Below, in pieces: positions 2,563-48,772 of a DNA stretch of 64,000 nt. Source of the DNA: Squalus acanthias (taxonomy: Eukaryota). The notes beneath the pieces are model-generated. The model was not told the DNA's origin, made no database searches, and saw only the letters and a list, made by a program, of their open reading frames with translations. The stretch is from NCBI GenBank assembly GCA_030390025.1, contig JASTWF010000033.1, forward strand, positions 1,366,001 to 1,430,000, in the 5' to 3' direction. Every line of letters starts with the position of its first letter. Positions within the stretch are counted from its first letter, which is position 1. A program made the translations under genes and the position numbers.

Positions 2563-4196
2563 CATAGAAACATAGAAACATAGAAGATATGAGCAGGAGT
2601 AGGCCATTCGGCCCCTCGAGCCTGTTCCGCCATTTAATGAGATCATGGCTGATCATCCAAACTCAGTACCCTGTACCTGCCTTCTCCCCATATCCCTTGA
2701 TTCCTTTAGCCTTAAGAAATATATCTAGCTCCTTCTTGAATATATTTAATGAATTGACTTCTACTACCTTCTGTGGTAGAGAATTCCACAGGTTCACCAC
2801 TCTCTGGAGGAAGAAATTCCTCCTCATCTCAGTCGTCATCCTCATCCCTTATCCTTAGTCTGTGACCCCTGGTTCTGGACTCCCCCGCCATCGGGAACAT
2901 CCTTCCTGCATCTAGTCTGTCTAGTCCTGTTAGAATTTTATAATTTTCAATGAGATCCCCTCTCATTCTCTAAACTCTAGCGAATATAAGCCTAATCGAC
3001 CCAATCTCACTTCATATGTCATTCCTGCCATCCCAGGTATCAGTCTGGTAAATCTTCGCTGCACTCCCTCCATGGCAAGAACATCCTTCCTCAGATAAGG
3101 GGACCAAAACTGCACACAATACTCAAGATGTGGTCTCACCAAGGCCCTATACAACTGCAGCAAGACATCCTTGTTTCTGTACTCGAATCGTCTCGCTATG
3201 AAGGCCATCATACCATTTGCCTTCTTAACCGCCTGCTGCACCTGCATGCTTTCCTTCAGCGACTGGTGCACAAGGACTCCCAGGTCTCGTTGCACTTCCC
3301 CTTTTCCCAATCTATTGCCGTTCAGATAATAATCTGCCTTCCTGTTTTTGCCACTGAAGTGGATAACCTCGCATTTATCCACATTATACTGCATTTGCCA
3401 TGCATCTGCCCAATAACCCAACCAGTCCAAATCATACTGGAGTTTCTCTGCATCCTCCTCACAGCACACACACACACACACAGCTTTATGTCGTCTACAA
3501 ACTTGGAGATATTACAGCTAGTTACCTCGTCTAGATCATTTATATATATTGTGAATAGCTGGGGTCCAAGCACCGATCCCTGCCGTACCCCACTAGTCAC
3601 TGCCTGCCACTCGGAAAAAGACTCGTTTATTCCAACTCTTTACTTCCTGTCTGGCAACCAGTTTTCTATCCAAGGCAGTACCTTACCCCCAATCCCATGT
3701 GCTTTAAATTTTCTTGCTAATCTCTTATGCGGGACCTTATCGAAAGCCTTCTGAAAGTCCAAATACACCACATCCACTGGTTCTCCCTTATCTATTCTAC
3801 CAGTTACATCCTCAAAACATTTCAGTAGATTAGTCAAGCATGATTTACCTTTTGTAATTCCATGTTGAATTTGTCCGATCCTGTCACTGTTTTCCAAGTG
3901 CTCTGCTATTACATCTTTTATAATGGACTCAAGCATTTTTCCCACGTACCGATGTCAGACTTACCGGTCTATAATTCCCCGTTTTCTCTCGACCATCTTT
4001 TTTAAATAGTGGGGTTACATTAGCTATCCTCCAATGCATGGGAACTGTTCCAGAGTCGATAGAATTTTGGAAGATGACCAGCAATGCATCTACTATTTCT
4101 TGGGCCACTTCCTCACATACCCTATGATTTAGATTATCAGGCCCTGGGGATTTATCGGCCTTCAATCCCATCAATTTCCCTAACACCGTTACCCTA
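2563..4196 (-). mobile_element. 5'-truncated CR1 LINE (RT C-terminal half, 3' UTR, tail), cut at 4197 by the retroviral LTR
   Basis: ORFs with YLDFQKAFDKVPH, QGSVLGPQLF, SKFVDD, RPHLEYCVQFWSP. (CATAGAAA)n tail at 2563-2585. Confidence 0.95.
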
Positions 4197-6151
4197 TGTA
4201 AGTGGTTTTTGATCCTAGCCCAATTTCTAGACGGACGGTTCGAATCGCCCCCGCCTTACGAAAGTTCTTTCCCGAGGAAGTGTTATTTAGAGTGTAAATG
4301 AAATAAGTCACGGACAGGAATGCTTCAGTGAAAAATCAAACTTATATGTATTTGGTCTACCATACACTGGCTAAAACATACACTACTAAACGAAATCATT
4401 GTCTCTGTGGAGAATAAAATCCAGGTTACAAACAACATACATACAGTACAAAACTGAGGACTCTCATTCCACCCCTACCAATGAATTACCCAGTCGCTTA
4501 AGGCCCTTCGCCTGGCTGAACCAAACAAAGCTCCCACCCCGGAATAGCCCAAAAGCTTCACTTCTGAGAAACTCTGAGCCCTCTGGTTACCGGCTTGGGA
4601 CACTCGAGACCATGCTTACCCCCACACACAGTCCGTCTCGATCGCTCCACTTAGCTGCTTCTTCCTCTGGTATTTAATGTTAGGTCGATCTTGTTGGGGC
4701 GAGAGCGAGACAGAGAGAGAGAGATATGGTGGGAAAGTATCTATCTTTATAGGAGTCTTGCTACCCCTATCTTTCCCGCCAATGTTTAAAATCCTTTTGT
4801 TTCTAAGCACTCCAGTGCTTAATCAGTGATGGGGTCATCCTCAGACCCATGTGTACTCCGTGTTTGTACTAATGGCCCTAAGTCTGGGACATAATTCGGT
4901 TTTTGTGTTAGGAAAAACTGGCTCCTCCCCGGCTGGCTAGGCCAGTGGGTTTATTGCTCTGCTTCTCTTCTGAGATGGAGGTGAGAAGTGCTTTTGCATA
5001 TTCTGGATGACTGACAGTTAGAACATAGAACATAGAACATAGAACAGTACAGCACAGTACAGGCCCTTCGGCCCTCGATGTTGTGCCGAGCATTGTCCGA
5101 GACCAAGATCAAGCTATCACACTCCCTATCACTCTGGTGTGCTCCATGTGCTTATCCAATAAGCGCTTGAAAGTTCCTAAAGTGTCCGACTCCACTATCA
5201 CAGCAGGCAGTCCATTCCACACCCCAACCACTCTCTGAGTAAAGAATCTACCTCGGACATCCCTTCTATATCTCCCCCCATGCACCTTATAGTTATGCCC
5301 CCTTGTAACAGCTGCCTCTACCCGAGGAAATAGTCTCTGAACATCCACTCTATCTATCCCCCTCATCATCTTATAAACCTCTATTAAGTCGCCTCTCATC
5401 CTCCTCCGCTCGAAAGAGAAAAGCCCCAACTCCCTCAATCTTTCCTCATAAGACCTCCCCCCCAAACCAGGCAGCATCCTGGTAAATCTCCTTTGCACTC
5501 TTTCCAATGCTTCTACGTCCTTCCTATAGTGAGGTGACCAGAACTGCACACAATATTCCAAATGTGGTCTCACCAACGTCCTGTACAGTTGCAGCATAAC
5601 CTCACGGTTCTTAAACTCAAACCCTCTGCTAATAAACGCTAACACACCATAGGCCTTCTTTACTGCTCTATCCACTTGAGTGGCAACCTTCAGAGATCTG
5701 TGGATATGAACCCCCAGATCCCTCTGCTCCTCCACCTTCCTCAGAACCCTGCCGTTGACCCTGTAATCCTTATTCAAATTTGCCCTACCAAAATGAATCA
5801 CCTCGCACTTATCAGGGTTAAATTCCATCTGCCATTTTTCGGCCCAGCTCTGCATCCTATCAATGTCTCTTTGCAGCCTACAACTGCCCTCCACCTCATC
5901 CACTACTCCACCAATCTTGGTGTCATCAGCAAATTTACTGATCCACCCTTCAGTCCCCTCCTCCAAGGGTTTAAGTTCTTTCGTCACAGCCAACTTCCAT
6001 GCGTTCTCTGGAGTTTTAACAAACCACTTTTTCACATATCTTCACAGGGTGATCCCATCACAGGGAAAATATCCTCAGAAAAATCCCATAATACCCACAA
6101 AATATTCTCGACTTAGTCCATTCTTCAAACAGAGACTTTGCGATCTCTTCA
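4197..6151 (-). repeat. 3' LTR of the provirus (~1.0 kb after removing the CR1 insert at ~5019-5966)
   Basis: On the minus strand it begins TG(AAG) directly after a purine tract and ends ...CTTACA. The terminal 64 nt are repeated at 20931. Candidate TATAAA near 4745-4750 and ATTAAA near 4673-4678 (minus). The 6151 boundary is inferred from the PPT only. Confidence 0.7.
5019..5966 (-). mobile_element. 5'-truncated CR1 LINE inserted in the LTR
   Basis: Uninterrupted RT C-terminal frame (ISKFADDTKIGG...RPHLEYCVQFWSP...FFTQRVV), 3' UTR and (AGAACAT)n tail. Confidence 0.95.
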
Positions 6152-6163
6152 GTCCCCCGTTTG
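6152..6163 (-). promoter_or_regulatory. Putative polypurine tract (PPT)
   Basis: Minus strand reads CAAACGGGGGAC|TGAAG, a G-run ending just before a TG, as at retroviral PPT/U3 junctions. Confidence 0.6.
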
Positions 6164-6424
6164 ATGTTTGTCTTTCCACAAAGTATCACTCGACGAGAGA
6201 GCAAAGGCCAAAGTCTCCCACAAGTGAAGCTGTTTCTCTGATTTTACATTTTAACCCCAGAGCTGTACCCCCTTACTGCGTGTCATAGTTCCCTTCTACT
6301 AAGTCAAAACATCAGCGAAACGGCTTCTGAACACATTCAAATGACTGGGTTCCAACTCCCACCGACAAACTTCAAGTCAAAATACAGAAAATTAATAAGA
6401 TCCACAGGAGGTACCCAGAAAGTC

Positions 6425-7668
6425 ACCGCACACATCACACAGTACAGCATTGACAGGTGGTAACACATTACAAAAATACAACAGCGCACATCACACAGTA
6501 CAGCATTGACACGTGGTAACACATTACAAAAATACAACAGCGCACATCACACAGTACAGCATTGACACTCGGTAACACATTACAAAAACACAACAGCGCA
6601 CATCACACAGAACAGCATTGACAGGTGGTAACACATTACAAAAATACAACCGCGCACATCACACAGAACAGCATTGACAGGTGGTAGCACATTACAAAAA
6701 TACAACAGCGCACATCACACAGTACAGCATTGACAGGTGGTAACACATTACAAAAATACAACAGCGCACATCGCACAGTACAGCATTGACAGGTGGTAAC
6801 ACATTACAAAGATACAACCGCGCACATCACACAGTACAGCATTGACAGGTGGTAACACATTACAAAAATACAACAGCGCTCATCACACAGTACAGCTTTG
6901 ACAGGTGGTAACACATTACAAAAATACAACAGCGCTCATCACACAGTACAGCTTTGACAGGTGGTAACACATTACAAAAATACAACAGCGAACATCACAC
7001 AGTACAGCATTGACAGGTGGTAACACATTACAAAAATACAACAGCGCACAGCATTGACAGGTGGTAACACATTACAAAAATACAACAGCGCACATCACAC
7101 AGTACAGCTTTGACAGGTGGTAACACATTACAAAAATACAACAGCGCACATCACACAGTACAGCATTGACAGGTGGTAACACATTACAAAAATACAACCG
7201 CGCACATCACACAGTACAGCATTGACAGGTGGTAATACATTACAAAAATACAACAGCGCACATCACACAGTACAGCATTGACAGGTGGTAACACATTACA
7301 AAAATACAACAGCGCTCATCACACAGTACAGCTTTGACAGGTGGTAACACATTACAAAAATACAACAGCGCTCATCACACAGTACAGCTTTGACAGGTGG
7401 TAACACATTACAAAAATACAACAGCCAACATCACACAGTACAGCATTGACAGGTGGTAACACATTACAAAAATACAACAGCGCACATCACACAGTACAGC
7501 TTTGACAGGTGGTAACACATTACAAAAATACAACAGCGCACATCACACAGTACAGCATTGACAGGTGGTAACACATTACAAAAATACAACAGCGCACATC
7601 ACACAGTACAGCATTGAAAGGTGGTAACACATTACAAAAATACAACAGCGCACATCGCACAATACAGA
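6425..7668. repeat. 56-bp tandem minisatellite (~22 copies) between env and the 3' LTR
   Basis: Unit acagcgcacatcacacagtacagcattgacaggtggtaacacattacaaaaataca; copies are nearly identical. Confidence 0.97.
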
Positions 7669-7749
7669 GTGTAAAGCTATAACCAGAATACTATACACTT
7701 GCTTACAGAACCTTGGTACATTACAAGTTTTTGCAGGGAGAAACCATCA

Positions 7750-9057
7750 TCAACATAAATCAATTACACCTTTCCGGATCGATCTAACACCCCTTGCCAC
7801 CGCGCTCGGAGCATCTGGCTCCATCACCTGCAGCTGGTGTAGAACAAGTAGCTTACAAGCAACAATTGTATGATAACTAATGCATGGGAACAGATGCGGA
7901 TCCAGGGAGGAATCTCTATACTCAGACCGATGTCCCACCATGGTGGTGAGACAATCCCCCTGATCTCCTCCCCCACTTCTACTGTCTTTTGCTCCAAAGT
8001 GTAAAAATGTTTCTGGGAGAGTTCAGCGGTCTTTATTAACTCAGTGAGATGTTCCGGCAGAAAAGGAATTTTTCCAGGTCCCTCTTCTCTGCCTCCCGGA
8101 CCCCACATTGTCCCCAACATTCAGACTATAAAGCTGTTCTTTCTCTACATTTCCATGGCCCAGTTCAAAAAAATCCTGAAACATCGCTTTTAACAAAGCT
8201 TCATAAAGCTTCTCCGTCTTCCTTGGACACCACACAGGCAGGTGGACTTCAGTCAGGTTCGGGATCACGGCTGCCACGGCGTAGAGCACGTTCTGAAACA
8301 ACACTTTGTCAGTCGGGATTAACACCAACCCATTCCCTGGACCCCTGGTGGTGGTGGGACACCCATCTACAGCCGTCTGTACCGTCGGGGCTCTGGACGC
8401 GGGCTTCCTGGTGTATGGGATGAGCTCTGTGACGTTGATGGTATTCGGGGGTATTGGGGTTACACAGGAGTACACACTCCGATCCCAACCGATCCCACCC
8501 CCGGCGTCCTGCCATCGCCTGCTAAACGCGATCAACACACCCGCTGGGCAGATCTTTTCCGACCCCCACATACTCACATATATCCCTTCCTCGGATTCCC
8601 ACCACTTATCCCAACACACATTTACTCCTCTCTGAGAACCCGTGATCGTCCGGTACGTGTCATTACTTAGTCTTTCACAGTCAGCTGTCTGGTCCCCAGT
8701 ATCCATGCTCTGTTTCCTGAGCCACCACCACCTTCCCAGTGGAATGTGTCCCCTACAGCTAAGGCACACCCGTTTACCCTCTGTTACCCTAACCCGGGAG
8801 GTGATAACCCCTATTCTCGGGCATGGGATGGATGCTTCACCATGGATGAACTTGTCATGGCTGGAATACCGGGTGGAATTTGACCCCAGCCATCCAGGCC
8901 ATCTTCCCTCGTGAAGATAGACGCTCGCCGCATCCTTCGAGCCACCTCCAGTGGGCACGGTCGGTCCGTCTCCGCCGGTGCAGCCGAAGATAACCGATTC
9001 CTCGGTGTCGCCCCCGTGACTCGTGCTGGCTTCAATCATGACGCTCAGGACTACCAT
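7750..9057 (-). pseudogene. env: env-like gene (class I fusion/F-like glycoprotein), internally deleted and frameshifted
   Basis: Splice acceptor tgtgtcttttcag| at 9088 and Kozak gccATGg at 9057. Hydrophobic N-terminus, Cys/Trp-rich ectodomain with NxT sites, and furin site RQRR at 8094-8083. A second frame then encodes a heptad-like stretch, PPWWD and the TM segment ALVIIQLLLVSYLFY. Confidence 0.8.
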
Positions 9058-9206
9058 GGCTGACTTAATTTTGTTCTTAGGCGTTCCCTGAAAAGACACA
9101 GAATGCAACGTTGTCCTTGGGTGATGCCTCACCTAACCAGACGCAGCTACACACGATTACATTTGGTATCCACAACATACATGTAAATCCAAACTATACA
9201 GACAAG

Positions 9207-10603
9207 CTAAGGCAACAGACAGGAGAGAAAGAAGTTATGTACAGCGCCACCCGTCTCCGGGTGGCCACACCAGGTCTCCTCGACCCTGAGCCTATTACGA
9301 CTCCGGCTTCCTTCGTTCAATGGTGTGTAAGGAGGCGTCCACGGCTCCCTCGACTGTGGTATCCTGGCACTCCTTCTCACTCCTGTCCCCACAGGCGGAA
9401 CGACTGGTCCCTCTGTTGGCTCCTCACAATCCCAGAGTATGGGCTGGAGACCCACACCTGTAGCGCAGCTCACCACTCCCTGCTGTTTCCTCCTCTTATC
9501 AGCTCTTTCCCCAGGGTTGAAAAGCTTGCACTGATTGATATGGAACCAGTTAGTGCGTCGAGGAATTTTGACCGCATATACCATCGGACTTGCCCTATCC
9601 ATGATAATGTACGGTCCCATGTATAGCGGTTCAAAAGTCCCTACCCTGGCGAAGTTTCTAACCATTATTTGATCTCCGACCTTCCACTCGTGTTGCCTCT
9701 GAGGCTCAAGCAATAAACGATTTCTACGATGTTGCTTCCCCATGTTACTGGCAGCCTGCCAATGGATCTGTCTGAGATGCTCAAACAAATTCTTAACAAA
9801 CCTGTCCCGGTTCACCTCTCTCAACTGACCTTCCGTGAGAACCGGGGCCAGTACATGGCTGGGCGTTCTCATGACCCTGCCAGTCACGAGCTCATGCGGG
9901 GAATACCCTGTGCTTCTAGACGGGCTGGCTCAGACCCCCATCAGAACTAACGGCAAAACCTCCGCCCATTTTCTAGGCGAGTCTCCCGTCTCCTTCCGTA
10001 ACCTTTCCTTGATGGTCCTATTCATCCGCTGCACAATCCCCGATGACTGCGTGTTGTGTGTGACGTTCCATTTACCCTCTATACCTAGCATCTTCAGAGT
10101 CGCCTGCATGACTGCCCCTGTGAAGTGACTCCCCTGATCGGACAGCACATACCGTGTCAGCCCCCACCTAGAGAACACTTCTCTCACAAGAATCCTTGCG
10201 GTCCACAAAGCTGTGGCTGTTCGGCATGGGAAGGCTTCCACCTATTTAGTGAACACATCCACCAGGAGCAGGCAGTACTTGTAACTCCCCTGCGCGGTGG
10301 GCAGCGGTCCGATATAATCGAACTGTATGGACTGCCATGGTCCCTCCACTCTCCTAGTGTGTCCCATGGATACCTTCCTTTTTTGGGGGTCAAGGTTGTT
10401 TGCAGCACACACCAAGCAATCCGCGCAGAAGTCGCGGACGTCCTCCCTCAGTTGCAGCCACCACCTGCCTGTTCCACCCGTTGCCAGGAGGTCTCCGGCC
10501 CGGGCTGCCCCGCTCCTGGACCCTCGTGGGCCAAATTAAGGAATTCTCTCCGGTGCTGCTGCGGAACTGCCCACTGTTCCCCTCTGAAAACCATCCCTTC
10601 CTT
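9207..10603 (-). pseudogene. pol: pol 3' part: integrase (HHCC remnant, DDE core, GPY/F module)
   Basis: FCADCLVC, EAFPCRTATA, VLSDQGSHFTG, QSSGIVQRMNRTIK, WKVGDQIMVRNF...YMGPY. Stops and frameshifts are present. Confidence 0.92.
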
Positions 10604-12114
10604 TAGAGTCATAGAGTTATACAGCACAGAAAGAGGCCCTTCGGCCCATCGTGTCCGCGCCGGCCATCAAGCCCTGTCTATTCTAATCCCATTTTCCAGC
10701 ACTTCGTTCGCAGCCTTGTATGCTATGGCGTTTCAAGTGCTCATCTAAATGCTTCTTTAATGTTGTGAAGGTTCCTGCCTCTACCCCCCTTTCAGGCAGT
10801 GAGTTCCAGATTCCAACCACCCTCTGGGTGAAAAAGTTTTTCCTCAAAGCCCCTCTAAACCTCCTGCCCCTTCCCTTGAAACTATGCCCCCTGGTTATTG
10901 ACCCCTCTACTAAGGGGAAAAGTTCCTTTCTATCTACCCTATCTATGCCCCTCATAATTGTGTACACCTCAATCAGGTCCCCGCTCAGCCTTCTCTGCTC
11001 TAATGAAAACAACCCCAGCCTGTCCAGTCTCTCTTCATAGCTGAAACGCTCCAGCCCAGGTAACATTCTGGTGAATCTCTTCTGCAGCCTCTCCAATGAA
11101 CTCACATCCTTCCTATAGTGTGGCGACCAGAACTGCACACAGTATTCCAGCTGTGGCCTAACTACCGTTTTGTACAGCTCCATCATAACCTCACTGCTCT
11201 TATATTCTATGCCTCGGCTAATGAAGGCAAGTTTCCCATATGCCGTTTTAACCACCTTATCAACCTGCCCTGCTGCCTTCCGGTATCTATGTGCATGCTC
11301 ACCAAGGACCCTCTGATCCTCTGTCCTTCCTCGGGTCCTAACATTCATTGGCCCAAAAATTCATCCTGGTGCGCGAGAGTACGCACTGCGTACACTCGCG
11401 TATTCCCTCTTCAATTGCCGGTTTTCTGCATGCACTACGCATGCGCTGAAAACCGGCACTTCATGTCTGGTCAGTTTCATGGATCTGCGAGTAATCGCGT
11501 GGGCTGGTGATTCTGCGCGTGCGTCGGAAAATTCATGTATTTTGTGAATGAGAGAAGTGTGTGTCAGCTCCGAGCAGTTACACATTTTAAAACCAGGAGC
11601 AGCAGCCATTTATACATTTGCCGAGATAAGTAGGAGGAAGAAATCCTTTTGGAGTGTGGCTACTGAGGTGAGTTTTTTAAATTTGAAAGACACAAAAGTT
11701 TTAAATGAAGTCTTATATAAGTTAAGAGTTTTAAAAAAAAAATTTTAAAACGGGTTTTGACCATTTGGAGTAGTATAGCAACTGTGGGTATGTACAAGGC
11801 ATATTTAGGTATCTATCTGTGAAAATGAAAGTTTAAAAATGAACTGTTTACGTTTCAAAAAGTTTTAAAGATGAAAATGAGTAAGTAAGTAAGTATGTAT
11901 GTATGTATGTATGAATTTATGAAAATGTTACAGGTTTGGAAAATCAGCTAGGGCCGTGTGGCGGGTAGATGTGTTCCCAAGCTGATAGCGCACGTGTCCC
12001 ACCATAGCCTGACCTGATTTTATAGCCACTCACTTAACTAAAGTTACTTTAACAACTATTTCCATTTTTTCATTACAACTTTCAGTTTGAGGAGGAAGCC
12101 TGTGTGAGAGAAAG

Positions 12115-13266
12115 ATGCCCTTTTGCAATCGATTGTTCTTCCTCCTCTGTGTGATTACGTATCTGAGAATTTTCGAATACAGACAACGAATCAGACGGAG
12201 GAACCAAGCCCGTCTCCTCCAGAGAAGGAGAAACTACTACCCACCAAATAGAGTGTACAGGCAGAGGCTGTCATTTGAGATGCTGTCGGAGGAGCTGTGT
12301 GTGAGGAGGCTGCGCTTCAGTAAAGAGTCAATTGGCCGAATCTGTGAGATGTTACAGGAGGACCTTCAAACACGCACGAAGAACCGCAATGCATTGTCAC
12401 TGAGCATGAAGGTAACCACAGCACTGAACTTCTTTGCAAGTGGGACTTTTCAGGCAAGCACCGGTGACATTTGCAACATATCCAAGAATGCTGCGAGGGC
12501 CTGCATTCACCAGGTCACAGAAGCCATTTACCGTAGGGCTTCTGAGTTCATTAAGTATGACTTGTCTGCTCGCCATCAAAAGGAGATGGCGCTTGCATTT
12601 CATAACATTGCTGGATTCCCCAAAGTGATTGGGGCTGTCGATGGAACCCATGTAGCATTGAAGGCACCAGGGGTTGCACCTGTGACATTTATCAACAGGA
12701 AGGGGTTTCATTCACTGAATGTCCAGATTGTCTGTGATGCGCATCTCAGGATCTTAAATGTGAATGCAGGTAACCGTGGAAGTAATCATGACTCCTTCGT
12801 CCTCCGTAACTCTGACTTATATGGCGTCCTCAACGCATTGCCTCCAGGATCCGCATGGATATTGGGCGACAAGGGCTACCCGCTAAGACCATGGCTGATG
12901 ACTCCCTACCGCAAGACCAATAATGAGGCTCAGGAGAGATACAACCAGGCACACGTGTCCACACGGCAAGTGGTGGAGAGGACAATTGGAGTTCTGAAAT
13001 CACGCTTCCGGTGCCTGGACAGGTCAGGGGGGACCTTGCAGTATTCGCCTCAGAAAGTGGCAAAGATTGTGGTGGCCTGTTGTGCTTTGCATAACTTTGC
13101 CCTGCAGGAAGGACTGACCCTTAACGCTGCAGATGAACTACCTGCAGAAATGGAGGACGTGGACAATGCCAATGTGCCTGTGGGAAGGCATGATGGGGAA
13201 GAGCCAACTGCTGCTCAAAGTAAGGCTGCAAGGGAGCAGCTGGTAGCCAACACCTTCACGAGGTAG
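12115..13266 (+). CDS. Harbinger transposase (HARBI1-like DDE nuclease), intact 383 aa
   Basis: Motifs GAVDGTHV, NRKGFHSLNVQIVCD, GSNHDS, LGDKGYPLRPWLMTP, VERTIGVLKSRFRCL, ACCALHN. Probable 5' UTR intron 11668-12085 (GTGAGT...TTTCAG). AATAAA near 13463. Confidence 0.95.
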   Translation: MPFCNRLFFLLCVITYLRIFEYRQRIRRRNQARLLQRRRNYYPPNRVYRQRLSFEMLSEELCVRRLRFSKESIGRICEMLQEDLQTRTKNRNALSLSMKVTTALNFFASGTFQASTGDICNISKNAARACIHQVTEAIYRRASEFIKYDLSARHQKEMALAFHNIAGFPKVIGAVDGTHVALKAPGVAPVTFINRKGFHSLNVQIVCDAHLRILNVNAGNRGSNHDSFVLRNSDLYGVLNALPPGSAWILGDKGYPLRPWLMTPYRKTNNEAQERYNQAHVSTRQVVERTIGVLKSRFRCLDRSGGTLQYSPQKVAKIVVACCALHNFALQEGLTLNAADELPAEMEDVDNANVPVGRHDGEEPTAAQSKAAREQLVANTFTR

Positions 13267-13279
13267 TGTCGCCTTGTAC

Positions 13280-13452
13280 CTCCCGCTCCCCCTCCCCTCT
13301 CCCCCTTCCCCTCCCCTCTCCCCCTCCCCCTCCCCCTCCCCTCTCCCCCTCCCCCTCCCCCTCCCCCTCCCCTCTCCCCCTCCCCCTCCCCTCTCCCCCT
13401 CCCCCTCCCTCTCCCCATCCCTCTCCCTCTCCCCCTCCCCCTCCCTCTCCAC
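13280..13452 (+). repeat. (CCCCT/CCCCCT)n pyrimidine microsatellite
   Basis: About 170 bp of almost pure C/T directly after the transposase stop. Confidence 0.97.
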
Positions 13453-13955
13453 CAGCAAGGCAAATAAAGGTACAGACACAATTTAAAGTGAAACAGTGCT
13501 CTTTTATTGCAGCATTACAGACTTCTGAGGTTCATTGTTGCTTTACATAGTTTATAACTTTTCAATGTTAACTAGCTACTTTTCAACTTTGTAAACAATC
13601 GTAAACAGAAATAGGTTTTTCAAAAATTTGTTAACAATTCTCAGTAACTTTTTTGCTTCGTTAATGCAGTAAAGACATTCAAGATGGGAAATAACTCTTT
13701 CCTATATGTAAACAAGTTTAAATGTTCAATTTTTTTGTGAAAATAAACAATTTGAATTTTTATAAAGTGACTAAAGGCTGTACTTTTTCAATGAAAAGCT
13801 AACTTTCAGTTTCAGTGTCAAATATATATATAAATAAAGAAAAATGTAAACATGTAAGTTTTAAATAAAACTAAAAAGTAAACACTTGAGAAATTTAACC
13901 ACAAATAAACTATTCCTGAGGGTCAATGGATGTGCATTGTGGAACATGCAACACC

Positions 13956-15505
13956 CTAACGTCTCTTGCGCTTTCTTGATTGCATCATCGTTGGTGGCTC
14001 TTGGACCTGCACTGATTCTGCGCTGGGAGCAGGTAAGGTTGGTTCTGATGGAGTCACAGTAATTGCAGCAGAAATTATTCGCATGAGTCCTTCAAGAGAC
14101 TCATTTATTTTACTAAGCTGCACTCCCACCAGTCCTTCAAGAGACTCATTTAATTTACTAAGCTGCACTCCCACATCGGGTTTCTGCAACATTCCTTCAA
14201 GAAAATCATTTATTTTACTAAGCTGCACTCCCACATCGGGTTTCTGCAACATTCCTTCAAGAGACTCATTTATTTTACTAAGCTGCACTCCCACATCGGG
14301 TTTCTGCAACATTCCTTCAAGAGACTCATTATATTCTTAAGCTCCATTCCCAGATTTCCCAATCCCTGCTTGACCAAGGTAAGACAATCAACTTCTTTCT
14401 CTGAAATAGAAGAGATCGATTGAGTCAAGCCTACAAGTTGGTGGATGTCACCATGCATCACCTGTTCTGCTGCATATATATCTGTGTCTCCCACAGGCAC
14501 TGTAGTATCAAGCTGCTGTCTGTTTGGCACAGAGCCAGAGGGGCCAGGAGTTGGAGAGGAAGATTGAGAGGACCTCTCCTGCAACCCAGATTCCAGAGCC
14601 TCCATGTTTAATTCAGCAAAAACTTCCTCCTGCTGCTCCTCCACCAACACCTCACTCGCATCTCCCACTGGCTCAACATGCCCTTCACTAATGACCTCTT
14701 CGGCTGCAGACTCAACGCACTGCTCATCCCGTGACTGAGAAGTATGCTCAAAACCTATGTAAAGGAAACAGTAAAGATTAGCAAAGGTAAAGCATGATGT
14801 GCCACATCACAGAAGCTATTCAGCACACATCACCTTTGTCGAATCGTTCATTTCCAAAGGGACATCCGCTAAGATATCCAAAGATATGCTCGAGCCTTTC
14901 CTCATGTTCGGTTAAAGCCCTTAACATGACAACACCACCGCCTGTCAGTGAACGTTCTCTGGCGTTGTGAGCAGTTTTACTCTAAAATTGAAAATGAAAA
15001 TCTGAAATGTAAGGGTTTTTACACCAGAACTGCATTGGCACTCACACAGTTAACTCAGTAAGCAACTCAAAGCATTTCAATCAAGATGACATTAGCATTT
15101 TATGAGACTTGCCTGGCTACAAAAGCCACAAAAATTTATGGTAGCATCTTGTGACTTCAGTTAACTCAGCTTAGCAAACAAACACTTTTTCAAGGCTTTT
15201 CATTTTAAATGTAAAGACATTTTAACATTGACTTTTGTTATAACTATACAAACCTTCAGCGTTCGATATAAATCGCTGAATTTTTTGCGACATTGCTCGG
15301 CTGTACGTGGAATGGTCGAGGTTGCGCTCACACTTTGAGCAACCTCTTTCCACGCTGCCATTTGGCCTTTTCGCGGCGGCTTGGACTTCTGAGTTCCAAT
15401 TATCCGTGAACGTTTCGATTCTACCTCGTCAAGAAGTGTACGGAGATCATCATCACTGAAATTCTGTGTTCTTTTTATAAATTGGATAGTGCTGATAGCA
15501 GCCAT
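13956..15505 (-). pseudogene. Harbinger Myb/SANT-like DNA-binding protein gene, 3 exons (15505-15254, 14981-14834, 14754-13956), with a 1-nt frameshift near 14330
   Basis: Exon 1 has NFSDDDLRTLLDEV...AWKEVA...RTAEQCRKKFSDL. GT-AG introns splice in frame to SKTAHNARERSLTGGG...LTEHEERL, then to the acidic exon 3. The C-terminus RKRKRR is in the shifted frame. Confidence 0.88.
14088..14332. repeat. 60-bp coding tandem repeat (3 full copies plus a partial one) in the Myb-like gene
   Basis: Encodes INESLEGMLQKPDVGVQLSK repeats. Confidence 0.92.
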
Positions 15506-16643
15506 TTTCGTTTGCTGATTATAAACAGTTAAATCTCTGAAAAAAATGATTTCTGAACTTTTAAAAGTACTTAAATTACTTTAAATCTCTTTGCAAATGT
15601 TTAACATTACTCAAATTATACTAAAAATCTTTAAAAGTTTACAAAACCATGCATTTAAAACCTACTTACTGCAAATTCCACCTGAAACAGTGAGAAAACT
15701 GTGTCTCCAGCTGCTTTACAATGGCTGCAGTGGAGAAAAAAATCGGGGGCGTGGCCTATGGAAAAGAGACCTTAATGGGCGTGTCTTCACTCCACATCGC
15801 ACGCGATGCAACGCGCACGCTGCGCTGCAGGGCAGTGTGACGTCATACGCTGCCCTGCACTCAATCAGCCAGAAGATGAATTTTCAACGTGAAAAAGAGG
15901 AAACGGCAGACGCGGTATGTATTACCGCGCCTGCTCCTTACACCCGCGGGAACGGAGCCAGATGAATTTCTGGCCCATTGTGTATTCCCTTGCCTTGTTA
16001 GTCTTCCCAAAATACATCACCTCACACTTTTCAGGGTTAAATTCCATTTGCCACTGTTCTGCCCATCTAACAAACCCGTCTATATCGGCCTGTAGCCGGA
16101 GGCTTCCCTCCTCACTATTTACCACCCCACCAATTTTCGTGTCATCTGCAAACTTACTGATCATACCTCCTACATTCATATCTAAATCATTAATGTACAC
16201 TACAAACAGCAAAGGACCCAGCATTGGACACAGGCTTCCAGTCACAAAAGCAACCTTCGACCATCACCCTGTGCCTCCTGCCACGAAGCCAATTTTGGAT
16301 CAAAGGTGCCAAGTTGCACTGGATCCCATGGGCTTTTACCTTCTTGACCAGTCTCCCATGCGGGACTTTGTCAAAAGCCTTACTGAAGTCCATGTAGACT
16401 ACATCAACTGCACTAACCTCATCCATACACCTAGTCACCCCCTCTAAAAATTCAATCAAATTGGTCAGACATGATCTCCCCCTGACAAAGCCATGATGAC
16501 TATCCTTGATTAATCCTTGACTCTCCAAGTGGAGACTATTTCTGTCCCTCAGAATTTTTTCCAATAATTTCCCTACCACTGATGTTATGCTCACTGGCCT
16601 GTAATTCCCTGGTTTATCCCTACTACCCTTCTTGAATAATGGT

Positions 16644-19203
16644 CCTACGTATTTAGCGAGATACCTGCCACTCCGTATGGACGCTCTACCTTATCTCCCT
16701 TAGCCAGCGTCTCCAGAACAGTCTTCAGGACGGGATGCCGTGCCTGGACAATCTTTAGGTCCGGGGCCAATGCTACCCCTGCACTCCCTTAGGCCCCACC
16801 TCTGTCTCTGATCGCTACTACCTGACTCGACCCATATGGATCCCAAAACGTGCCCGTTCGAGCACCCTCTTTGGTCATCATGTTGGCCTGCTGATTGCCC
16901 TCCGCAAGGGGTTCCGCCTTTGAATGGGCCTTAACTTTGTGGATATAGAAATCCCCCTGGGTTCCTATACTTGTTATGATCTGTTGCAACAATGGCTTTG
17001 TTGCTCGGGGTTTCCCGTCTGCAGATGTGAACCCGCGACGAGACCAAATGGCTAAATATTCTGCACACGAAGTGCAAGTGAACATGCTGTCCGAGCAAAT
17101 AGTATAGGGCGTAGGGTACACTTCGGGGTGAGTAACCACATACACCACCGCCGACAGTTCAGCGTGCTGGGCGCTCATGGTGCTCAGGAGTTTAATGGCC
17201 TTGGCAATGCCTGCCTTTGGGTCAAAAATCCCGCATCCAGTGAGTCGCTCCCCTGCCACTACTGTACTGGACCCGTCGATATGGATCCCAGCCCGAAACC
17301 CTACGTCTACGTCCCATACCCCTTCAACAGAACATTTGTGGGCCACCCCTGGGTAGATCAAATTTGCGGGGAGCTTAGGCTCACAGAGGCCTTTCACACT
17401 CAAATTCGTCTGAGAGAGCGATAAAGTCCAGCGAGCAATGCGTGCACTGCTCACCGTGCCGTCCTTTATCCTCCCATCCAGAAGCATCTGAGTGGGCGTA
17501 TGATGGGTTAAGAGAGTTAATGGGGACGCCCCCGTGAAGATTTGTGATCTCCTCACGGCCCAATGTGTGGCAAGCAGGTGCCTCGCACAATTGGAGTACC
17601 CCCTCTCTACATCTGTGAGGATTCTTGATGAGTATACGACAGGCCTCAGCTTGCCATGCCGCTCCTGGAGCAGCACTGCGCTCAAACTGTCCCCTGTGGC
17701 AGCTACCTCCAAAACAAACTCCTTTCCCCCATCAATTGCTCCTAAAGCCGGTGCGGTCTGCAGATCTCTCTACAGACGACTAAAAGCTGTCATGCAGTCC
17801 TCATCCCACTCCCTTGTGAAGGAGCCGGAGTAGAGGAGCTGCCGTAGCGGCCGAGTCCTCTATGAAATCCCTGCAATGCCCTGTGAGTCCCAGGAAGGAT
17901 CTTACCCGCGTTATCGTGGTCAGGGCAGGTAGCTCCTGTACCGCCTTCCTTTTCGCCTCATCGATGGCCCTCTCCCCAGCACATATGGTCAGCCTGAGGA
18001 ATTTTACGTCCTGCTGGCCGATCTGTGCTTTCTTGTGATTAACCTTGAACCCAGCTACCTTTAACAGACTCAGCAGCTCAGCCAGCAGGGGGCCATGCTC
18101 CTCCCCCTCGTTGGAGAACAAAAGCAGATCGTCCACGTACGGTACAAGCTGCTGCGGTCTGCTGAACCCTTTTAAACAGTTGGCCATACATTGGTGGAAA
18201 ATAGAAGGGCTGTTATGAAACGCTTGGGGTAGGCAGGTCCATGTGTATTGCTGACCCTTCAAAGTAAATTCGAACTTATACTGGTCCTCCCTTTTGAGAG
18301 GGATAGACCAGAATCCGTTTGAAATGTCCAGCACCGTGACTATTTTCGCGGATGCCGGGATACTCCCGATCAGGTCAGCTACGGCTGCGACGGTGGGGGC
18401 ACAGGCCTAGGATGTTCTTGTTAAGAACCCGATAGTCCACAGCGGCTCTCCACGAATTATCCGGTTTCCTAACCAGCCAAATCGGAGAGTTCATATGGGT
18501 CGCTAAGGGTCTCAACACACCCTGCTCAACCAGTGATCCCAATGCCATCTCTAAATCCGCCTCTGCCTCTCTGGGGAAGTTGTACTGTTTCTGTGGTCGG
18601 GCCATGGGGTTTCCTTCTACTCTGACCTCCACCCCTATTACCCTCCCACAGTCGTGCTTGTGTGTAGCGAATGCTGCGAGGTTGACTCGTACATCCGCTC
18701 TGTACTCCGCCGGGGTAGAAGTCACCAAAAGTTCAAGGTCATAACTACCCTTGGGCTTCATCGTGCACACGGTTCCCTTGCCTTGCTTCCCTGGTATAAC
18801 TACCACCTCCTTCTCCTTTCCCGTGCATACTGCCCCCCAAAGACATTGATTCCGGAAATCCACCAATATCTTGTGGGCCAGTATGAAGTCTGCCCCAAGA
18901 ATGCCTATTCCGCCAGCTCCCACCGCATCAGCACACATTTCCACTATGGAGTGTACCCAGATCGATGGCTAGCGGGATGGAGAAAGACCCAGCCTGTTCA
19001 TTCCCGGTGAACCCTACTAAGTTATATGGGACCCCGCTCGATAGAGATGATGTGGTCGGGTTATCCGCATAGAGATTGGTGCTTGAAGCTCCAGTGTCCA
19101 GCAGATAGGTCCCTTGCACCTTCTCCACCCCCATCTTCACGCACGGTCTCTTCCAAGCATCATAACTTAGTGGGCACAGGTAAACGGGCTGAGAAGCCCC
19201 CAG
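16644..19203 (-). pseudogene. pol: pol 5' part: aspartic protease, RT, tether (degenerate RNase H), retroviral-type RNase H
   Basis: LLDTGAS; NSPIWLVRKPDNSWRAAVDYRVLN; LDISNGFWSIPL; LPQAFHNSP; YVDDLLL; SAVLLQE..RPVVYSSRIL..E.GYS; IDGSS, SAQHAELSAV, CSDS, KVKAHS, GNQQAN. Several frameshifts. Confidence 0.95.
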
Positions 19204-20881
19204 TCATGGGTCGGGATTGTTTGGGGCGGATGGGAGTACGCTGCCCGCTGCTGCATCCACCCTACCCTGCCCTGCCGTAAAGACTGTGCGGAGAGCAGCC
19301 ACTAATACCGCGAACGGATCAGTGCTGCTTCCAGCCACAGCTGCTGCTTTCTGCACTGGCGCTGGAGGATCCCCTTTCCCGCTCCTTTTGTCAGAGACTG
19401 GGCAGTCTTTCCTCCAGTGCCCTTTACTCCCGCACCCATAACAACCCTGCTTCTTCTCTGAGCTACCCCCTTCCTGGCGCCACTCTCTTCTAACGTTGCC
19501 TCCACTAGGCTTTAACTCGTGTACTCTGCCCTTTGGTTTGTCATCCTCACCCCTACCATTCTTAAAAGAGAGAGTCAACTGCCGGATCACACTCGCTTCT
19601 GTGATCTGGGGATCCCTGGAATCGAACCACCCCTCTGCTTTGGCCTTGATCCTGGGCAGGCTGTTCGCCACCAGGGTCCCCAACCAATGAGCCCTAGGCT
19701 CCCCCTGCAGCTGCGCCTGGTCGGGCAGCCACGCACAGGCACTCTGGTAGACGAGCCAAAGCCTGTCCGCGAAAGCCTGCGGTGCCTCCCCAGCTGATTG
19801 CAGTGTCCTTTCCACTCGGGAGAAGGGACTTTCATCACTGAGGCCCATAGCCTCTAGGATGTCATCCTTTATCCCCTCTAACTTACCCTGCCCCCTCTTG
19901 CTACCTGCTGAGAGCGACTGGTACAACCTACTATCCAGGGAAAATAATAGTAATTTGTCTGTCTCAGCTTGGTTACAATTATTGATCCCCCCCACTGCTC
20001 CACATCCGTAAAATGGAGAGATGGGTCCCCTGTGCTGGTCAGTTTGGTCAGGTTAGAGACCATTGCCTGCAGCTGGGGATCGTATACGGGACCACGAAGT
20101 CACTCTGCAGTGCTCCTTGCTCTTGACCGTCTACGGGCGCACCGTATTTCCGCTGCCGGACAGGGCACATGGGTCCTGGACCCGGCACTTCGGGCGGTGG
20201 TCGAGCGTCCTCCTCTGCCTCACAGTCCTCCTTATCTCCCTCCTGCTCTTCCTCATCTACCCGGGCCATTCCCGGAGCTACCAAGCAGACCATCCCTTTG
20301 GCCTTAGATAGAGCATCGGTCAAATTCTGGATCTGCTCCTGGCCAGGACCATGATTACCCGTATCAAACCCTCTAGTGCTGGCATCTCTGTATGCCACCT
20401 GAATATCCTTCAACTGCTCTCCCAGCACCATTACCTCACTCGACAAGCGAGCGTTCTCCTCCCTAACCACCCTCTCGTTCCCCTTTGCCTCAGTTACCTG
20501 GCATTGCAGGAACTCCTTATGGTTACGGAAGGTTTCCTCCTGGCTTATTCTTCCCTGCTTCTCATCCCTTAGCTCCGTGCATAACCTGCTCCCTACTACA
20601 GCCCTTGCATCTGACTGTGCCAATGGACTCCCTGAGCTCTGCCTCTAACTTAGCAACCTGCTTATCTATCAGTTGGACATGTCTTTGTAGACAGACGAGC
20701 CATATCACCTTTTCAATGCTGCGCCTATGGTCCTGGCCCTCCGTCCATTCTGCCGCTGCGTCCACCGGACGCTCAGCACGCAACAAGCCTAGCACCCACT
20801 TCTTAGTGACGCTACCTTCTTAAACTCATATGAAGAAATCCTTTCCTCCATTTGGGATCTTTCGCCAGAAGCGCTGTCCAT
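19204..20881 (-). pseudogene. gag: gag: N-terminal coiled-coil region, capsid-like region, single CCHC zinc knuckle; frameshifted
   Basis: First ATG at 20881, downstream of the PBS. Heptad-rich KQVAKLEAELRE...VREENARLSSEV; QSAGEAPQAFADRL; CYGCGSKGHWRKDC. Confidence 0.85.
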
Positions 20882-20907
20882 GACTGATTTACATTCCTTG
20901 AACCCAG

Positions 20908-20925
20908 GTCCTGCCGCGGTCGCCA
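20908..20925 (-). promoter_or_regulatory. Primer binding site complementary to the tRNA-Arg(TCG) 3' end
   Basis: Minus strand TGGCGACCGCGGCAGGAC, 5 nt after the LTR end. The plus strand GTCCTGCCGCGGTCG-CCA matches the vertebrate tRNA-Arg(TCG) 3' end as recalled from memory. Confidence 0.85.
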
Positions 20926-20930
20926 AGAGA

Positions 20931-20994
20931 TGTAAGTGGTTTTTGATCCTAGCCCAATTGCTAGACAGACGGTTCGAATCGCCCCCGCCTTACG
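20931..20994 (-). repeat. Remnant (terminal 64 nt of U5) of the 5' LTR
   Basis: 62/64 identical to 4197-4260; it abuts the G-rich array. Confidence 0.92.
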
Positions 20995-26900: not shown

Positions 26901-26925
26901 ATTATGTGCGGTGATGAGGATCTTT
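20995..26925. repeat. G-rich 29-bp minisatellite, ~5.9 kb (~200 copies)
   Basis: Consensus gagctgaggatattaggtggggtggggag with many point variants; it degenerates at the right end. Confidence 0.98.
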
Positions 26926-42371: not shown

Positions 42372-43580
42372 CCTCTGGGAAGGGGCTGTCCTCTTTAACT
42401 GTGGCCATTTCAGTAATTAAATTCCAAATGTTAGATTGTCCTCTCAGGGCTGCTCTGCTCCACACTGGAATGGGTCTGTCCTTTTTAACTGTGGCTTATC
42501 AGTCATTCAATTCTAAATGTTATAGTGCTTTCTCATCGATGTTCTTCTGCTCGCTGGGATGGGTCAGCCCTCTTTAAATTTGGCCATTCAGTAATTAAGT
42601 TCCAAATGTTGTTATGTCCTCACACTGCTGCTCTGCTGCACTCTGGGATTGTGCCGTCCTCTTTTTATTTGGCCATTCAGTAATTAAATTCCAAATTTCA
42701 GAATGTTCTCTCGTGCTGTTCTGCTGCACTCTGCGATGGGTTTGCCTCTTTAACTGCGGCCATTCAATAATTAAATTACACATGTTAGTGTTTCCTCTCA
42801 GGGCTGCTCTGCTGCACTCTGGGATGGGTCTTTCATTTACAACTGAGGCTATTCAATAATTAGTTCCAACTGTTAAAGTGTCCTCTCAGGGCTGCTCTGC
42901 TGCAGTCTGGGGTGAGTCTGTCTTCTTTAACTGTGACCATTCATTAATTAAATTAAAAATGTTAGTGTGTCCTCTCAGGGCTGCTGTGCTGTACTCTGGG
43001 ATGGGTCTGGCTCTTTAACTGTGGTTATTCAGTAATTTAATTCCAAATGTAAGAGTGTACTCTCAAGGTTGCTCTGCTGCACTCTGTGATGGGTCTGCCC
43101 TCTTTAACTGTGGCCAATCAGCAATTTAATTCGAAATCTTAGAGTGTCCTCTCAGGGCTGGTCTGCTGCACGCTGGGATTGTATTGCCATCTTTAACTGT
43201 GGCCATGCAATATTTAATTTCTAAATTTTAGAGTGTCCTCTGAAGTTTGCTCCGCTGCACTCTGGGATGTGGCTGTCCCCTTTAATCTTGGCCATCCGAT
43301 AATTAAATTCCAAATGTTAGCGTGTCCTCTCAGGGCTGGTCTGCTGCACTCTGGGTTGTGTCTGTGCTCCTTAACTGTGGCCATTCAGTAGTGAATTTCT
43401 AAATTTTAGAGTGTCGTTTAAAAGGATGTACTACTGCACTCTGGGAAGGGGCTGCCCTTTTAACTTTGGCCATTCAGTAATTAAATTCCGAATCTCGGAC
43501 TGTCCTCTCAGGGCTGCTCTGCTGCACACTGGGATTTGGCTGTCCTATTTTACCTTGGCCATTCAGTAATTTAATTGAAT

Positions 43581-48257: not shown

Positions 48258-48772
48258 ATTGAGGGAGTGCAGCGAAGGTTCACTAGATTGATTCCTGGGA
48301 TGGCCGGTCTGACATATCAAGAAAGATTGGGTCAACTGAATTTGTATCCTCTGGAGTTCAGAAGAATGAGGGGGGATCTTATAGAGACATTTAAAATCCT
48401 GACTGGTTTAGACAAATTAGATGCGGGCAGAATGTTCCCAATGTTAGGGAAAACTAGAACCAGGGGTCACAGTCTAAGGATTAAGGGGAAGCCATTTAAG
48501 ACTGAGCTGAGGAGGAACTTCTTCACCCAGAGAGTGGTGAATCTATGGAATTCTCTTCCACAGAAGGTTGTTGAGGCCAGTTCGCTAAATATATTCAAAA
48601 GGGAGTTAGATATAACACTCACAACTATGGGGATCAAGGGGTATGGCGAGAAAGCAGGAATGGGGTACTGAGGTAGCATGTTCAGCCATGAACGCATTGA
48701 ATGGTGGTGCAGGCTCGAAGGACCGAATGGTCTACTCCTGTACCTATTTTTTATGTTTCTATGTTTCTATGT
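48258..48772 (+). mobile_element. CR1 3' fragment in the 89-bp satellite
   Basis: AIEGVQRRFTRLIPGMAGLTY...FFTQRVVNLWNSLP; (TATGTTTC)n tail. Confidence 0.93.

Follow-up and report, generated by a model that had tools for sequence, protein, structure and literature searches.

Snakehead retrovirus (SnRV) is the sole exogenous member of a clade of endogenous retroviruses (ERVs) that occurs in fish, amphibians, reptiles, and birds (PMC12193657). Among the ERVs of the coelacanth, SnRV-like elements are the main class (PMC4977317), SnRV also groups with one lineage of elephant-shark ERVs (PMC4422223), and it combines gag-pol read-through with a single zinc finger (PMC1224870). The discoverers of the lokiretroviruses (Loki) scored none of six chondrichthyan genomes as positive (PMC7947760), and canonical retroviral and lokiretroviral Env proteins were found to have no detectable similarity, which was argued to reflect independent origins (PMC9040795, Wang and Han 2022). 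Here, we analyzed a provirus of the shark Squalus acanthias that lies on the minus strand, from position 20994 to 4197, of a 64,000-nt stretch of DNA (contig JASTWF010000033.1 of assembly GCA_030390025.1, positions 1,366,001 to 1,430,000), which we refer to as the window. The original prediction had described it as a lokiretrovirus-like provirus with dual ribonuclease H (RNase H) and an F-like envelope. We read it, with a probability of roughly 60%, as a dead copy of a very abundant elasmobranch ERV family, the pol of which is of the canonical type and nearest to SnRV-like viruses, and the Env of which, in working members, is an F-type fusion protein.

Pol of the family and its nearest relatives

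The gene order long terminal repeat (LTR)-gag-protease-reverse transcriptase (RT)-tether-RNase H-integrase-env-LTR was present on the minus strand, as read from the translations of open reading frames (ORFs) and from Pfam matches; all features of the provirus are given below on that strand unless stated otherwise. The RT core (17804..18406) matched RVT_1 with an E-value of 4.5e-27 and contains the motifs LDISNGFWSIPL, LPQAFHNSP, and YVDD. Its closest solved structures were those of foamy virus protease-RT (3.2e-28), murine leukemia virus (MLV) or xenotropic MLV-related virus (~1e-25), and Ty3 (1.4e-21). The tether and RNase H (16792..17769; RT_RNaseH 6.7e-19, RNase_H 2.2e-14) are in a frame different from that of the RT core. 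The tether is a degenerate RNase H-like domain, it is followed by an RNase H of the active type, and the two together aligned end to end with residues 328-640 of MLV RT. With both Pfam matches in place, the identification of an endogenous provirus with dual RNase H stands, and the motifs quoted in support of it, including SAVLLQ..RPVVYSSRIL..ERGYS in addition to the three RT motifs, were all found in the window translations. What did not hold was the weight given to the first of the two domains: a tether that matches RNase H-like models is not distinctive, as gamma/epsilon-like Pol proteins match them likewise.

To place the family, we searched the host assembly (3.71 Gb, 3,882 contigs) for its copies, and compared the RT of the window and of a sister copy with those of known elements. 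The second RT motif reads LPQAFHNSP in the window and LPQGFHNSP in sister copies, both of which are of the retroviral form. The window RT motif LDISNGFWSI occurs three times in the alignments of the PMC7947760 supplement, each time in an SnRV row; in the same alignments, frog Loki rows have LDCAQGYWTI and LPFGYINAGHEF, and teleost Loki rows have LDVASGFWTI and CPFGYANSPAEF. The identity of the family RT to the printed SnRV row, counted by eye, is ~45%. The RT of the sister copy is 80% identical to an unnamed database protein, 52-53% identical to coelacanth and frog proteins, 35-42% identical to those of Loki, and 32-41% identical to gamma/epsilon-like ones. The closest named Pol proteins are those from coelacanth and frog, which are annotated as 'NYNRIN-like'; NYNRIN and CGIN1 are presumably one gene.

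Two trees were built, one of RT (70 rows x 269 columns, IQ-TREE with LG+C20) and one of RT-tether-RNase H (RT-RH; 49 rows x 611 columns). As natural Loki Pol references we used proteins with teleost Loki motifs, several of which were among the best 150 matches of a tether-RNase H search. In the RT tree, six Loki Pol proteins formed a clade with a support of 97 in the Shimodaira-Hasegawa-like approximate likelihood ratio test (SH-aLRT), and the window fell into its sister clade of 48 rows (99). Within the latter, the window, a sister copy, and one database protein made up a trio (100), which was placed inside a group of nine rows (87) with proteins of Latimeria and the frog Rhinophrynus. Beside this group stood a clade of 36 rows (91), gamma/epsilon-like as judged by the Pfam families MLVIN_C and Gag_p30. 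The RT-RH tree gave the same picture, with a clade of four Loki Pol proteins (100), its sister clade with the window (99), and a gamma/epsilon-like clade of 30 rows (98). When the trio was forced together with Loki in the RT-RH data, the tree was 26.8 log-likelihood units worse, and the grouping was rejected by the approximately unbiased (AU) test (p 0.023). An AlphaFold2 model of the RT-RH part of a sister copy (predicted local distance difference test, pLDDT, 88.5) had as its best named matches in BFVD foamy viruses (25-26% identity), a bat gammaretrovirus (29%), and walleye dermal sarcoma virus (27%). The highest identity in BFVD, 48% over 201 columns, was to an unnamed entry, and SnRV was not confirmable from such nameless entries.

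A plain Ty3/gypsy element was also considered and rejected: gypsy rows formed an outgroup clade in both trees (SH-aLRT 100), and the element has a second RNase H as well as an env. The earlier description of the RT motifs as retroviral, and not canonical Ty3/gypsy, is in agreement with the LPQ[AG]FHNSP form.

By pol, the family would thus be a retrovirus of the canonical type and not a lokiretrovirus, and it most likely belongs to the SnRV-like clade. Several points weigh against this placement. Loki rows were labelled by the identity of their motifs to those of the rows in the paper, one of them matching Loki-Lro over the printed stretch. The trees came from quick searches with SH-aLRT as the sole support, and they contained no labelled SnRV, ERV-L, foamy, lenti-, alpha-, or betaretrovirus, so that 'canonical' stands in them for gamma/epsilon-like proteins plus those of coelacanth and frog. 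In the AU test on RT alone, forcing the trio together with Loki was 20.5 units worse and not rejected (p 0.181). Additionally, the integrase tree did not decide between Loki and coelacanth/frog, and the integrase of the family is 39-45% identical to Loki integrases vs. 45-49% to those of coelacanth and frog.

These points bear on the possibility that the family is after all a lokiretrovirus, or a close relative of one, in cartilaginous fish, with retrovirus-like RT motifs that are convergent or ancestral. We regard it as very improbable. It would agree with the dual RNase H, with an integrase that is nearly as close to that of Loki as to that of any other group, with the unrejected grouping on RT alone, and with a heptad-rich N-terminal part of Gag like that in the printed 'Spc7-Gag-Pol' of Loki. 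The 'NYNRIN-like' annotation of the closest named Pol proteins also speaks for it, as the Loki integrase has been linked to CGIN1 (PMC7947760). Nevertheless, both trees set the family apart from natural Loki Pol (SH-aLRT 97-100 for the Loki clades and 99 for their sister clades), the AU test on RT-RH rejects the grouping, and the RT motifs are unlike those of every Loki row compared. A stop codon separates gag from pol in the family, where the printed Loki-Xtr has one fused frame. Moreover, the discoverers had no positive among six chondrichthyan genomes, even though the family is abundant and has relatives in skate and sawshark. The claim of lokiretrovirus membership by pol is not borne out: RT motifs and both trees put the family on the side of the canonical retroviruses, with the AU values differing between the RT-RH and RT-only data as given above.

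Env of fuller copies and the question of an F-type fusion protein

The env gene of the window copy (7827..9057) consists of a part like a surface subunit (SU), a RQRR site, and a remainder with an internal loss of ~994 bp and a change of frame at about 8070. It encodes a 330-residue SU with several N-glycosylation sites, RQRR, and then ~85 residues that comprise a membrane-proximal helix, an anchor, and a short tail. Between window positions 8072 and 8069, where the window has 2 nt, sister copies hold 994 bp in two cases and 1,024 bp in a third. The ~994-bp loss shifts the frame, and the same loss is found in one sister copy. As only ~85 residues follow RQRR, the F-like layout that had been claimed for this env is not readable from the window copy, in which ~994 bp are missing; such a layout is probable for the full Env of the family. 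Similarly, of the claim that gamma-type CXXC and CX6CC features are lacking, the second half stood, as CX6CC was not seen in the transmembrane subunit (TM), but SU does contain a CXXC tetrapeptide, CLSC. Three pieces of the window env matched no Pfam family, even at E<=10.

In databases, six proteins with the SU frame and two with the TM part were related to this env; the four named relatives all belong to a skate (Rhinoraja longicauda) or a sawshark (Pristiophorus japonicus) and, together with the genome size of 3.7 Gb, agree with the cartilaginous host that the original prediction gave as probable. In the host genome, three env subfamilies were found, with about 85-90%, 59-60%, and 49% identity to the window SU and with open frames of 783-870 codons. 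Among the N-terminal matches to the skate protein that were listed, 22 of 83 have a frame of exactly 789 codons. The full Env of ~785 residues starts with a signal-like sequence and a variable, cysteine-rich part of ~240 residues, followed by a conserved strand-cysteine-helix stretch and by RQRR at about residue 330. After RQRR come a moderately hydrophobic peptide, a heptad region of ~90 residues, and a highly conserved, cysteine-containing region of ~270 residues, and the protein ends with a second helical region, a membrane anchor, and a tail of ~30 residues. The post-cleavage subunit of ~455 residues is thus F1-like in its size and in the order of its parts, unlike the usual retroviral TM. 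The pre-cleavage fragment has ~330 residues vs. ~100 in F-type proteins, and the peptide that follows the cut is just moderately hydrophobic.

Two observations form the basis for reading this Env as F-type. The first is its placement in the ESM Atlas, where a 540-residue module of the Env had as its best named clusters Gypsy/Baculo_F with 0.96 (212 of 256 features), followed by 13 Baculo_F clusters with 0.95 and 12 Fusion_gly clusters with 0.94 (211 features); the top ten named matches were all in one family or clan. The second is the colinearity of the module with two printed Loki Env proteins, as read by eye. In the printed sequences, common landmarks are a cysteine that precedes the cleavage site by ~50 residues, ..[EQ]G[RL][IV]P.. 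past the long helix (e.g., ..EGRIP..), ..LP[IV][IV].. or ..MPV.. ~45 residues further on, ..Y[RK]...N[IV]G.., ..[IV].CP.., and ..CG... Taken together, they suggest that the family Env is probably an F-type class I fusion protein that is related to the Env of lokiretroviruses and carries an extra N-terminal domain.

A number of results argue in the opposite direction. The ESM Atlas recognition value of the module was low, 1805 vs. the usual 2300 for known families, and the method carries its own caution, namely that shuffled proteins reach 0.95 in ~1 of 100 cases and that a third of them get ten matches in one clan. With a shorter skate gene model of 516 residues, the best Atlas match was 0.77. 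Against Pfam at E<=10, neither the env pieces nor the skate protein nor any of four full-length frames gave Fusion_gly, Baculo_F, or Gypsy; the matches that did appear, e.g., to Ig_3 and DUFs, were at chance level. In the PDB, neither sequence nor profile searches returned a relevant match to the Env. A search of the host genome with PF00523 had no match, in a strict first look in which controls were silent too, so that it is not evidence of absence. The AlphaFold2 model of the full Env, made from an 18-row alignment, was unusable, with a mean pLDDT of 32.1 and a predicted template modeling score of 0.22; the part order described above recurs in its secondary structure, at this low confidence. 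Finally, the colinearity with Loki Env is an eye reading. The structural check on env that the original prediction had called for gave a divided answer: the structure model was unusable and the hidden Markov model (HMM) and PDB searches gave no F-type match, but the Atlas features place the module with F-type proteins.

Alternatively, the family could be an ordinary basal fish ERV of the class I/III type, with a lineage-specific class I glycoprotein that is unrelated to F. The match in the Atlas would then reflect generic features, e.g., a membrane anchor, cysteines, long helices, and a furin site. In favor of this reading, HMM, PDB, and structural support for an F fold is missing, the recognition value is low and the method gives warnings of its own, and the SU/TM sizes of 330/455 residues are nearer to those of an ordinary retroviral Env than to F0. 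Nevertheless, a TM of ~455 residues, with a cysteine-rich, predicted beta-rich region of ~270 residues between helical regions, is far over the typical TM and has the order of F1. Moreover, it is Baculo_F, Gypsy, and Fusion_gly in which the 30 Atlas matches concentrate, as opposed to retroviral Env families, and several short motifs are colinear with those of Loki Env when compared by eye. We consider an Env unrelated to F unlikely.

The F-type reading of Env bears in turn on what was said above about pol. At the family level, an F-type, Loki-like Env (from the Atlas and by eye) would be one more point in favor of a lokiretrovirus. However, the family Env would be cleaved at about residue 330, as opposed to about residue 116 in the printed Loki-Xtr Env. 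Since pol and env point to different relatives, the family could also be a recombinant, in which an SnRV-like gag-pol was joined to an env from a lokiretrovirus or a mononegavirus-like source, with the N-terminal domain added. Repeated replacement of RNase H and integrase is documented in retroviruses (PMC7947760). The present data, in which the Env comparison did not extend to SnRV or to the coelacanth and frog elements, do not separate such an origin from inheritance of an F-type Env throughout the SnRV clade, and we hold recombination to be doubtful, while giving it some weight. In more general terms, canonical retroviruses of the SnRV clade, which are abundant in elasmobranchs with many long open frames, may use an F protein of the Loki/paramyxovirus type with an N-terminal domain of ~240 residues, a proposal that we make tentatively and rate at somewhat less than even odds. 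The literature covered, which did not include preprint supplements and the SnRV sequence paper, contained no description of an F-type Env for the SnRV clade, so an earlier one elsewhere is possible.

Anatomy and decay of the window copy and the abundance of its family

The LTR pair that had been reported is only half preserved. The 3' LTR (5016->4197) is complete, with ~820 bp and TG..CA ends. Its start agrees with other copies: with the query 4197-5030, 39 non-self matches in the genome cover the 5' part, and each of them, whether from a 5' or a 3' LTR, starts at query base 11-13. Of the 5' LTR, only the last ~65 nt remain (20931..20994; the U5 end, ending in ..CA), the remainder being replaced by satellite DNA from 20995. 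In the self-comparison of the window, the sole terminal direct repeat was accordingly one of 65 nt (4196-4260 and 20930-20994; 63 of 65 identical). The satellite has a 29-bp period and extends over 21013-26920 with 204 units that are ~85% alike and strongly G-rich on the plus strand; it begins where the 5' LTR is cut. Other repeats surround the provirus. The left flank (3323-4196) is another repeat with a second copy at 43608-44480, blocks with a period of ~89 bp (75-78% alike) at 42373-43576 and 46594-49716 are interleaved with a LINE-like repeat (LINE, long interspersed nuclear element) that flanks the provirus at 2563-4196, and a regular tandem array with shifted self-matches every ~68 bp at ~97.5% identity runs from 55253 to 64000 and past the end of the window.

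The primer-binding site (PBS; 20925->20908) lies 5 nt past the 5' LTR remnant and is complementary in 18 of 18 nt to the 3' end of tRNA-Arg(TCG) with CCA. The tRNA of SnRV that serves as a primer is reportedly tRNA-Arg as well. The genome contains the pattern of the tRNA-Arg(TCG) 3' end 424 times, against zero for the reversed pattern, and ARAGORN called tRNA-Arg (tcg) at both loci that were checked. These tRNA genes stand in long tandem arrays with a spacing of ~1,623 bp on contig C26, at about 38.99-42.21 Mb, and in the one repeat unit examined, tRNA-Ser(GCT) was present too. The region ahead of the 3' LTR is weakly purine-rich. Thus, in the proposed layout from a PBS to a polypurine tract, the former is perfect and the latter weak.

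The gag gene (19207..20880, with an approximate start) is spread over at least three frames, with ORFs at 20819-20565, 20644-20051, 20099-19881, and 20052-19207. The N-terminal part of its product is rich in heptads; a capsid-like part is also present, as is one CCHC zinc knuckle (Pfam zf-CCHC, 9.1e-05). An in-frame TGA (19204..19206; ..NNPDP*LGASQP..) separates it from pro-pol. Besides the window, seven of nine loci had the boundary motif, which was not found in the other two, and all eight of these copies carry the same TGA. Its conservation marks it as a feature of the family and not as damage. It would serve as a translational read-through stop. The protease (LLDTGAS) and the N-terminal part of RT (18378..19203) follow, with changes of frame near 18950 and near 18400. 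The protease matched Pfam RVP weakly (E 0.076), and an unbroken form is present in a sister copy. In all, the frame changes at the junctions between protease and RT N-terminus, between RT N-terminus and RT core, and between RT core and tether. The integrase (9210..10605) is in three frames with zinc-binding, core, and SH3-like C-terminal parts; its Pfam matches, Integrase_H2C2 (1.1e-04), rve (2.5e-04), MLVIN_C (0.002), and SH3_Tf2-1 (0.0013), were all under the curated cut-offs.

Both of the inserts that had been marked for excision are real, with ends that shift slightly, from 10604-16643 and 5019-5966 to the joints 10605->16661 and 5015->5974. The first is a LINE insert, a fragment of a non-LTR reverse transcriptase, in the N-terminal part of the integrase (10606..16660; RVT_1 3.4e-14 for 16193-16690). 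The joint that skips it was found in contigs of three of four other sequencing runs, and parts of the LINE are common to a sister copy. Nested in this fragment is a PIF/Harbinger DNA transposon (11346..15975), with a transposase on the plus strand (DDE_Tnp_4 1.1e-42, 12091-13266) and a Myb-like gene on the minus strand (Myb_DNA-bind_5 3.8e-14, 15203-15580). Its boundary is given by the contig joint 11345->15976, and the sister copy is without it. Inside the Harbinger element, an ORF on the minus strand (13959-14806) contains a 60-bp tandem repeat of 3.7 units that encodes a repeated 20-residue motif; it had no Pfam family. The second LINE insert, a 3' reverse-transcriptase fragment (5016..5973; RVT_1 4.6e-05), lies directly upstream of the 3' LTR; contig joints at 5015->5974 and 5019->6016 skip it, and the alignment of the sister copy spans its boundary. 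Between env and the 3' LTR, there is also a tandem array of 22.3 units of 56 nt (6431..7667), which behaves as a variable minisatellite, with ~3.6 units in the sister copy and a joint 6427->7592 in contigs of three of four runs. The window copy is dead: it has no promoter LTR, its gag and its protease/RT and RT/RNase H junctions are frameshifted, its integrase is split, and the fusion machinery of its env is lost.

In contrast to this one copy, the family is clearly present in hundreds to thousands of copies; in the figures that follow, first-look candidate totals are unverified upper figures. Of 14,996 first-look candidates for the RT core, 150 were scored as matches, with 82-94% amino acid identity and many of them in open frames of 900-1,400 codons. 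With the LTR as query, 608 candidates in the host genome led to 42 matches. The env queries gave more than 100 scored matches, with 7,414 and 12,728 first-look candidates; set against the larger of these totals, the count was 104. A sister copy on another contig shares with the window copy the LINE insert in the integrase and the env loss, and has a 3.1-kb insert of its own in SU. Its alignment with the window ends exactly at the end of the LTR, despite 61 nt of flank being available, which indicates that the two copies are at different sites. In three close relatives, the distance from RT to the 3' end is equal, about 10.1-10.3 kb. Most likely, a defective sub-lineage multiplied after it had been damaged, using the proteins of intact relatives.

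The env-integrase stretch 7750-10600 has near-identical words in the sequencing runs of at least eight coded organisms (shares 0.24-0.42), which points to close relatives of the family in several species. At two of the five env loci examined (L016 and L018), the putative coiled coil of the Gag N-terminus is joined directly to the post-integrase tail, without pol, and such loci may come from spliced env mRNA or from deletion; at the other three, the integrase is upstream of env.

Proposed working of intact members and comparison with known systems

In intact members of the family, reverse transcription would be primed by tRNA-Arg(TCG), as suggested by the PBS match, and Gag-Pro-Pol would be made by read-through of the conserved TGA. 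Pol contains protease, RT, tether, RNase H, and integrase domains, and its processing and the integration of the provirus would proceed as in other retroviruses. The Env of ~785 residues would form a trimer and be cleaved by a furin-like protease at the RQRR site. Its N-terminal ~240 residues are predicted to make up an extra domain, presumably a receptor-binding one. Seen as a class I fusion protein of the paramyxovirus/baculovirus-F/lokiretrovirus type, the Env would have its F2 part in the last ~85 residues before the cut, with a strand, a cysteine, and a helix, and its F1 part in the ~455 residues after the cut, with a fusion peptide, a long heptad helix, a cysteine-rich beta region, a second helix, and an anchor. 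Membrane fusion would then be driven by the refolding of the two heptad regions of this F-like module. The sub-lineage of the window copy was probably a passenger that spread by means of the proteins of intact relatives.

Among known systems, epsilon/gammaretrovirus-like class I ERVs of fish resemble the family in their read-through gag-pol, in YVDDLLL, in an MLV-like tether and RNase H, and in weak MLVIN_C matches. They differ from it in forming a separate clade (SH-aLRT 91 for RT and 98 for RT-RH), and the family is without the gamma-type CX6CC and has an unrelated Env. The Env of errantiviruses (Ty3/gypsy) and the F protein of baculoviruses (PF07253, PF12259), which are the best language-model matches to the 540-residue module (0.95-0.96), follow the same order, from the furin site and fusion peptide through a helix, the beta region, and a second helix to the anchor. 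In contrast to the family, they belong to invertebrate hosts and, for errantiviruses, go with a gypsy-type pol, and no similarity to the family Env was detected at the HMM level.

Lokiretroviruses have the same LTR-gag-pol-env arrangement with a tether and RNase H, the same heptad-rich N-terminal Gag, and, at the level of the family Env, a similar set of furin-type site, fusion peptide, coiled coil, and anchor, resembling the F protein of Mononegavirales. The RT motifs and the position in the trees are different, however, and the window family adds an N-terminal Env domain of ~240 residues and the stop between gag and pol. Additionally, the Env of Loki-Str matches PF00523 with an E-value of 2.2e-7 (Wang and Han), as opposed to no PF00523 match for the family Env. 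If the reading proposed here is true, the combination of a canonical-type pol with an F-type, Loki-like env bears directly on the argument for independent origins of the two kinds of Env and makes the question testable. F-type envelopes would not be confined to lokiretroviruses and gypsy elements, and either the common ancestor of retroviruses and lokiretroviruses had an F-type Env, or env moved between both lineages.

The likeness to SnRV and SnRV-like ERVs (CmiERV lineage I and those of coelacanth and amphibians; 'clade Huo') lies in the same LDISNGFWSI motif and in the RT identity estimated by eye. Read-through of the gag-pol stop and a single zinc knuckle are common to SnRV (PMC1224870) and the window family, the nearest named Pol proteins of which are those of coelacanth and frog. 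The SnRV-like clade is already recorded in a cartilaginous fish (PMC4422223). SnRV reportedly differs in having a 136-residue cytoplasmic tail of Env and accessory ORFs (PMC12193657); the family tail has ~30 residues, and no accessory ORF was identified. The window provirus in itself is an ordinary wreck, and SnRV-like ERVs in cartilaginous fish are already known. For a fish ERV, what appears to be unusual in this elasmobranch genome of 3.7 Gb is the abundance of the family and the large number of long open frames in it: as opposed to 100-700 ERV insertions in the elephant shark (PMC4977317), the window family apparently has thousands of copies (83 scored among 12,728 first-look env candidates).

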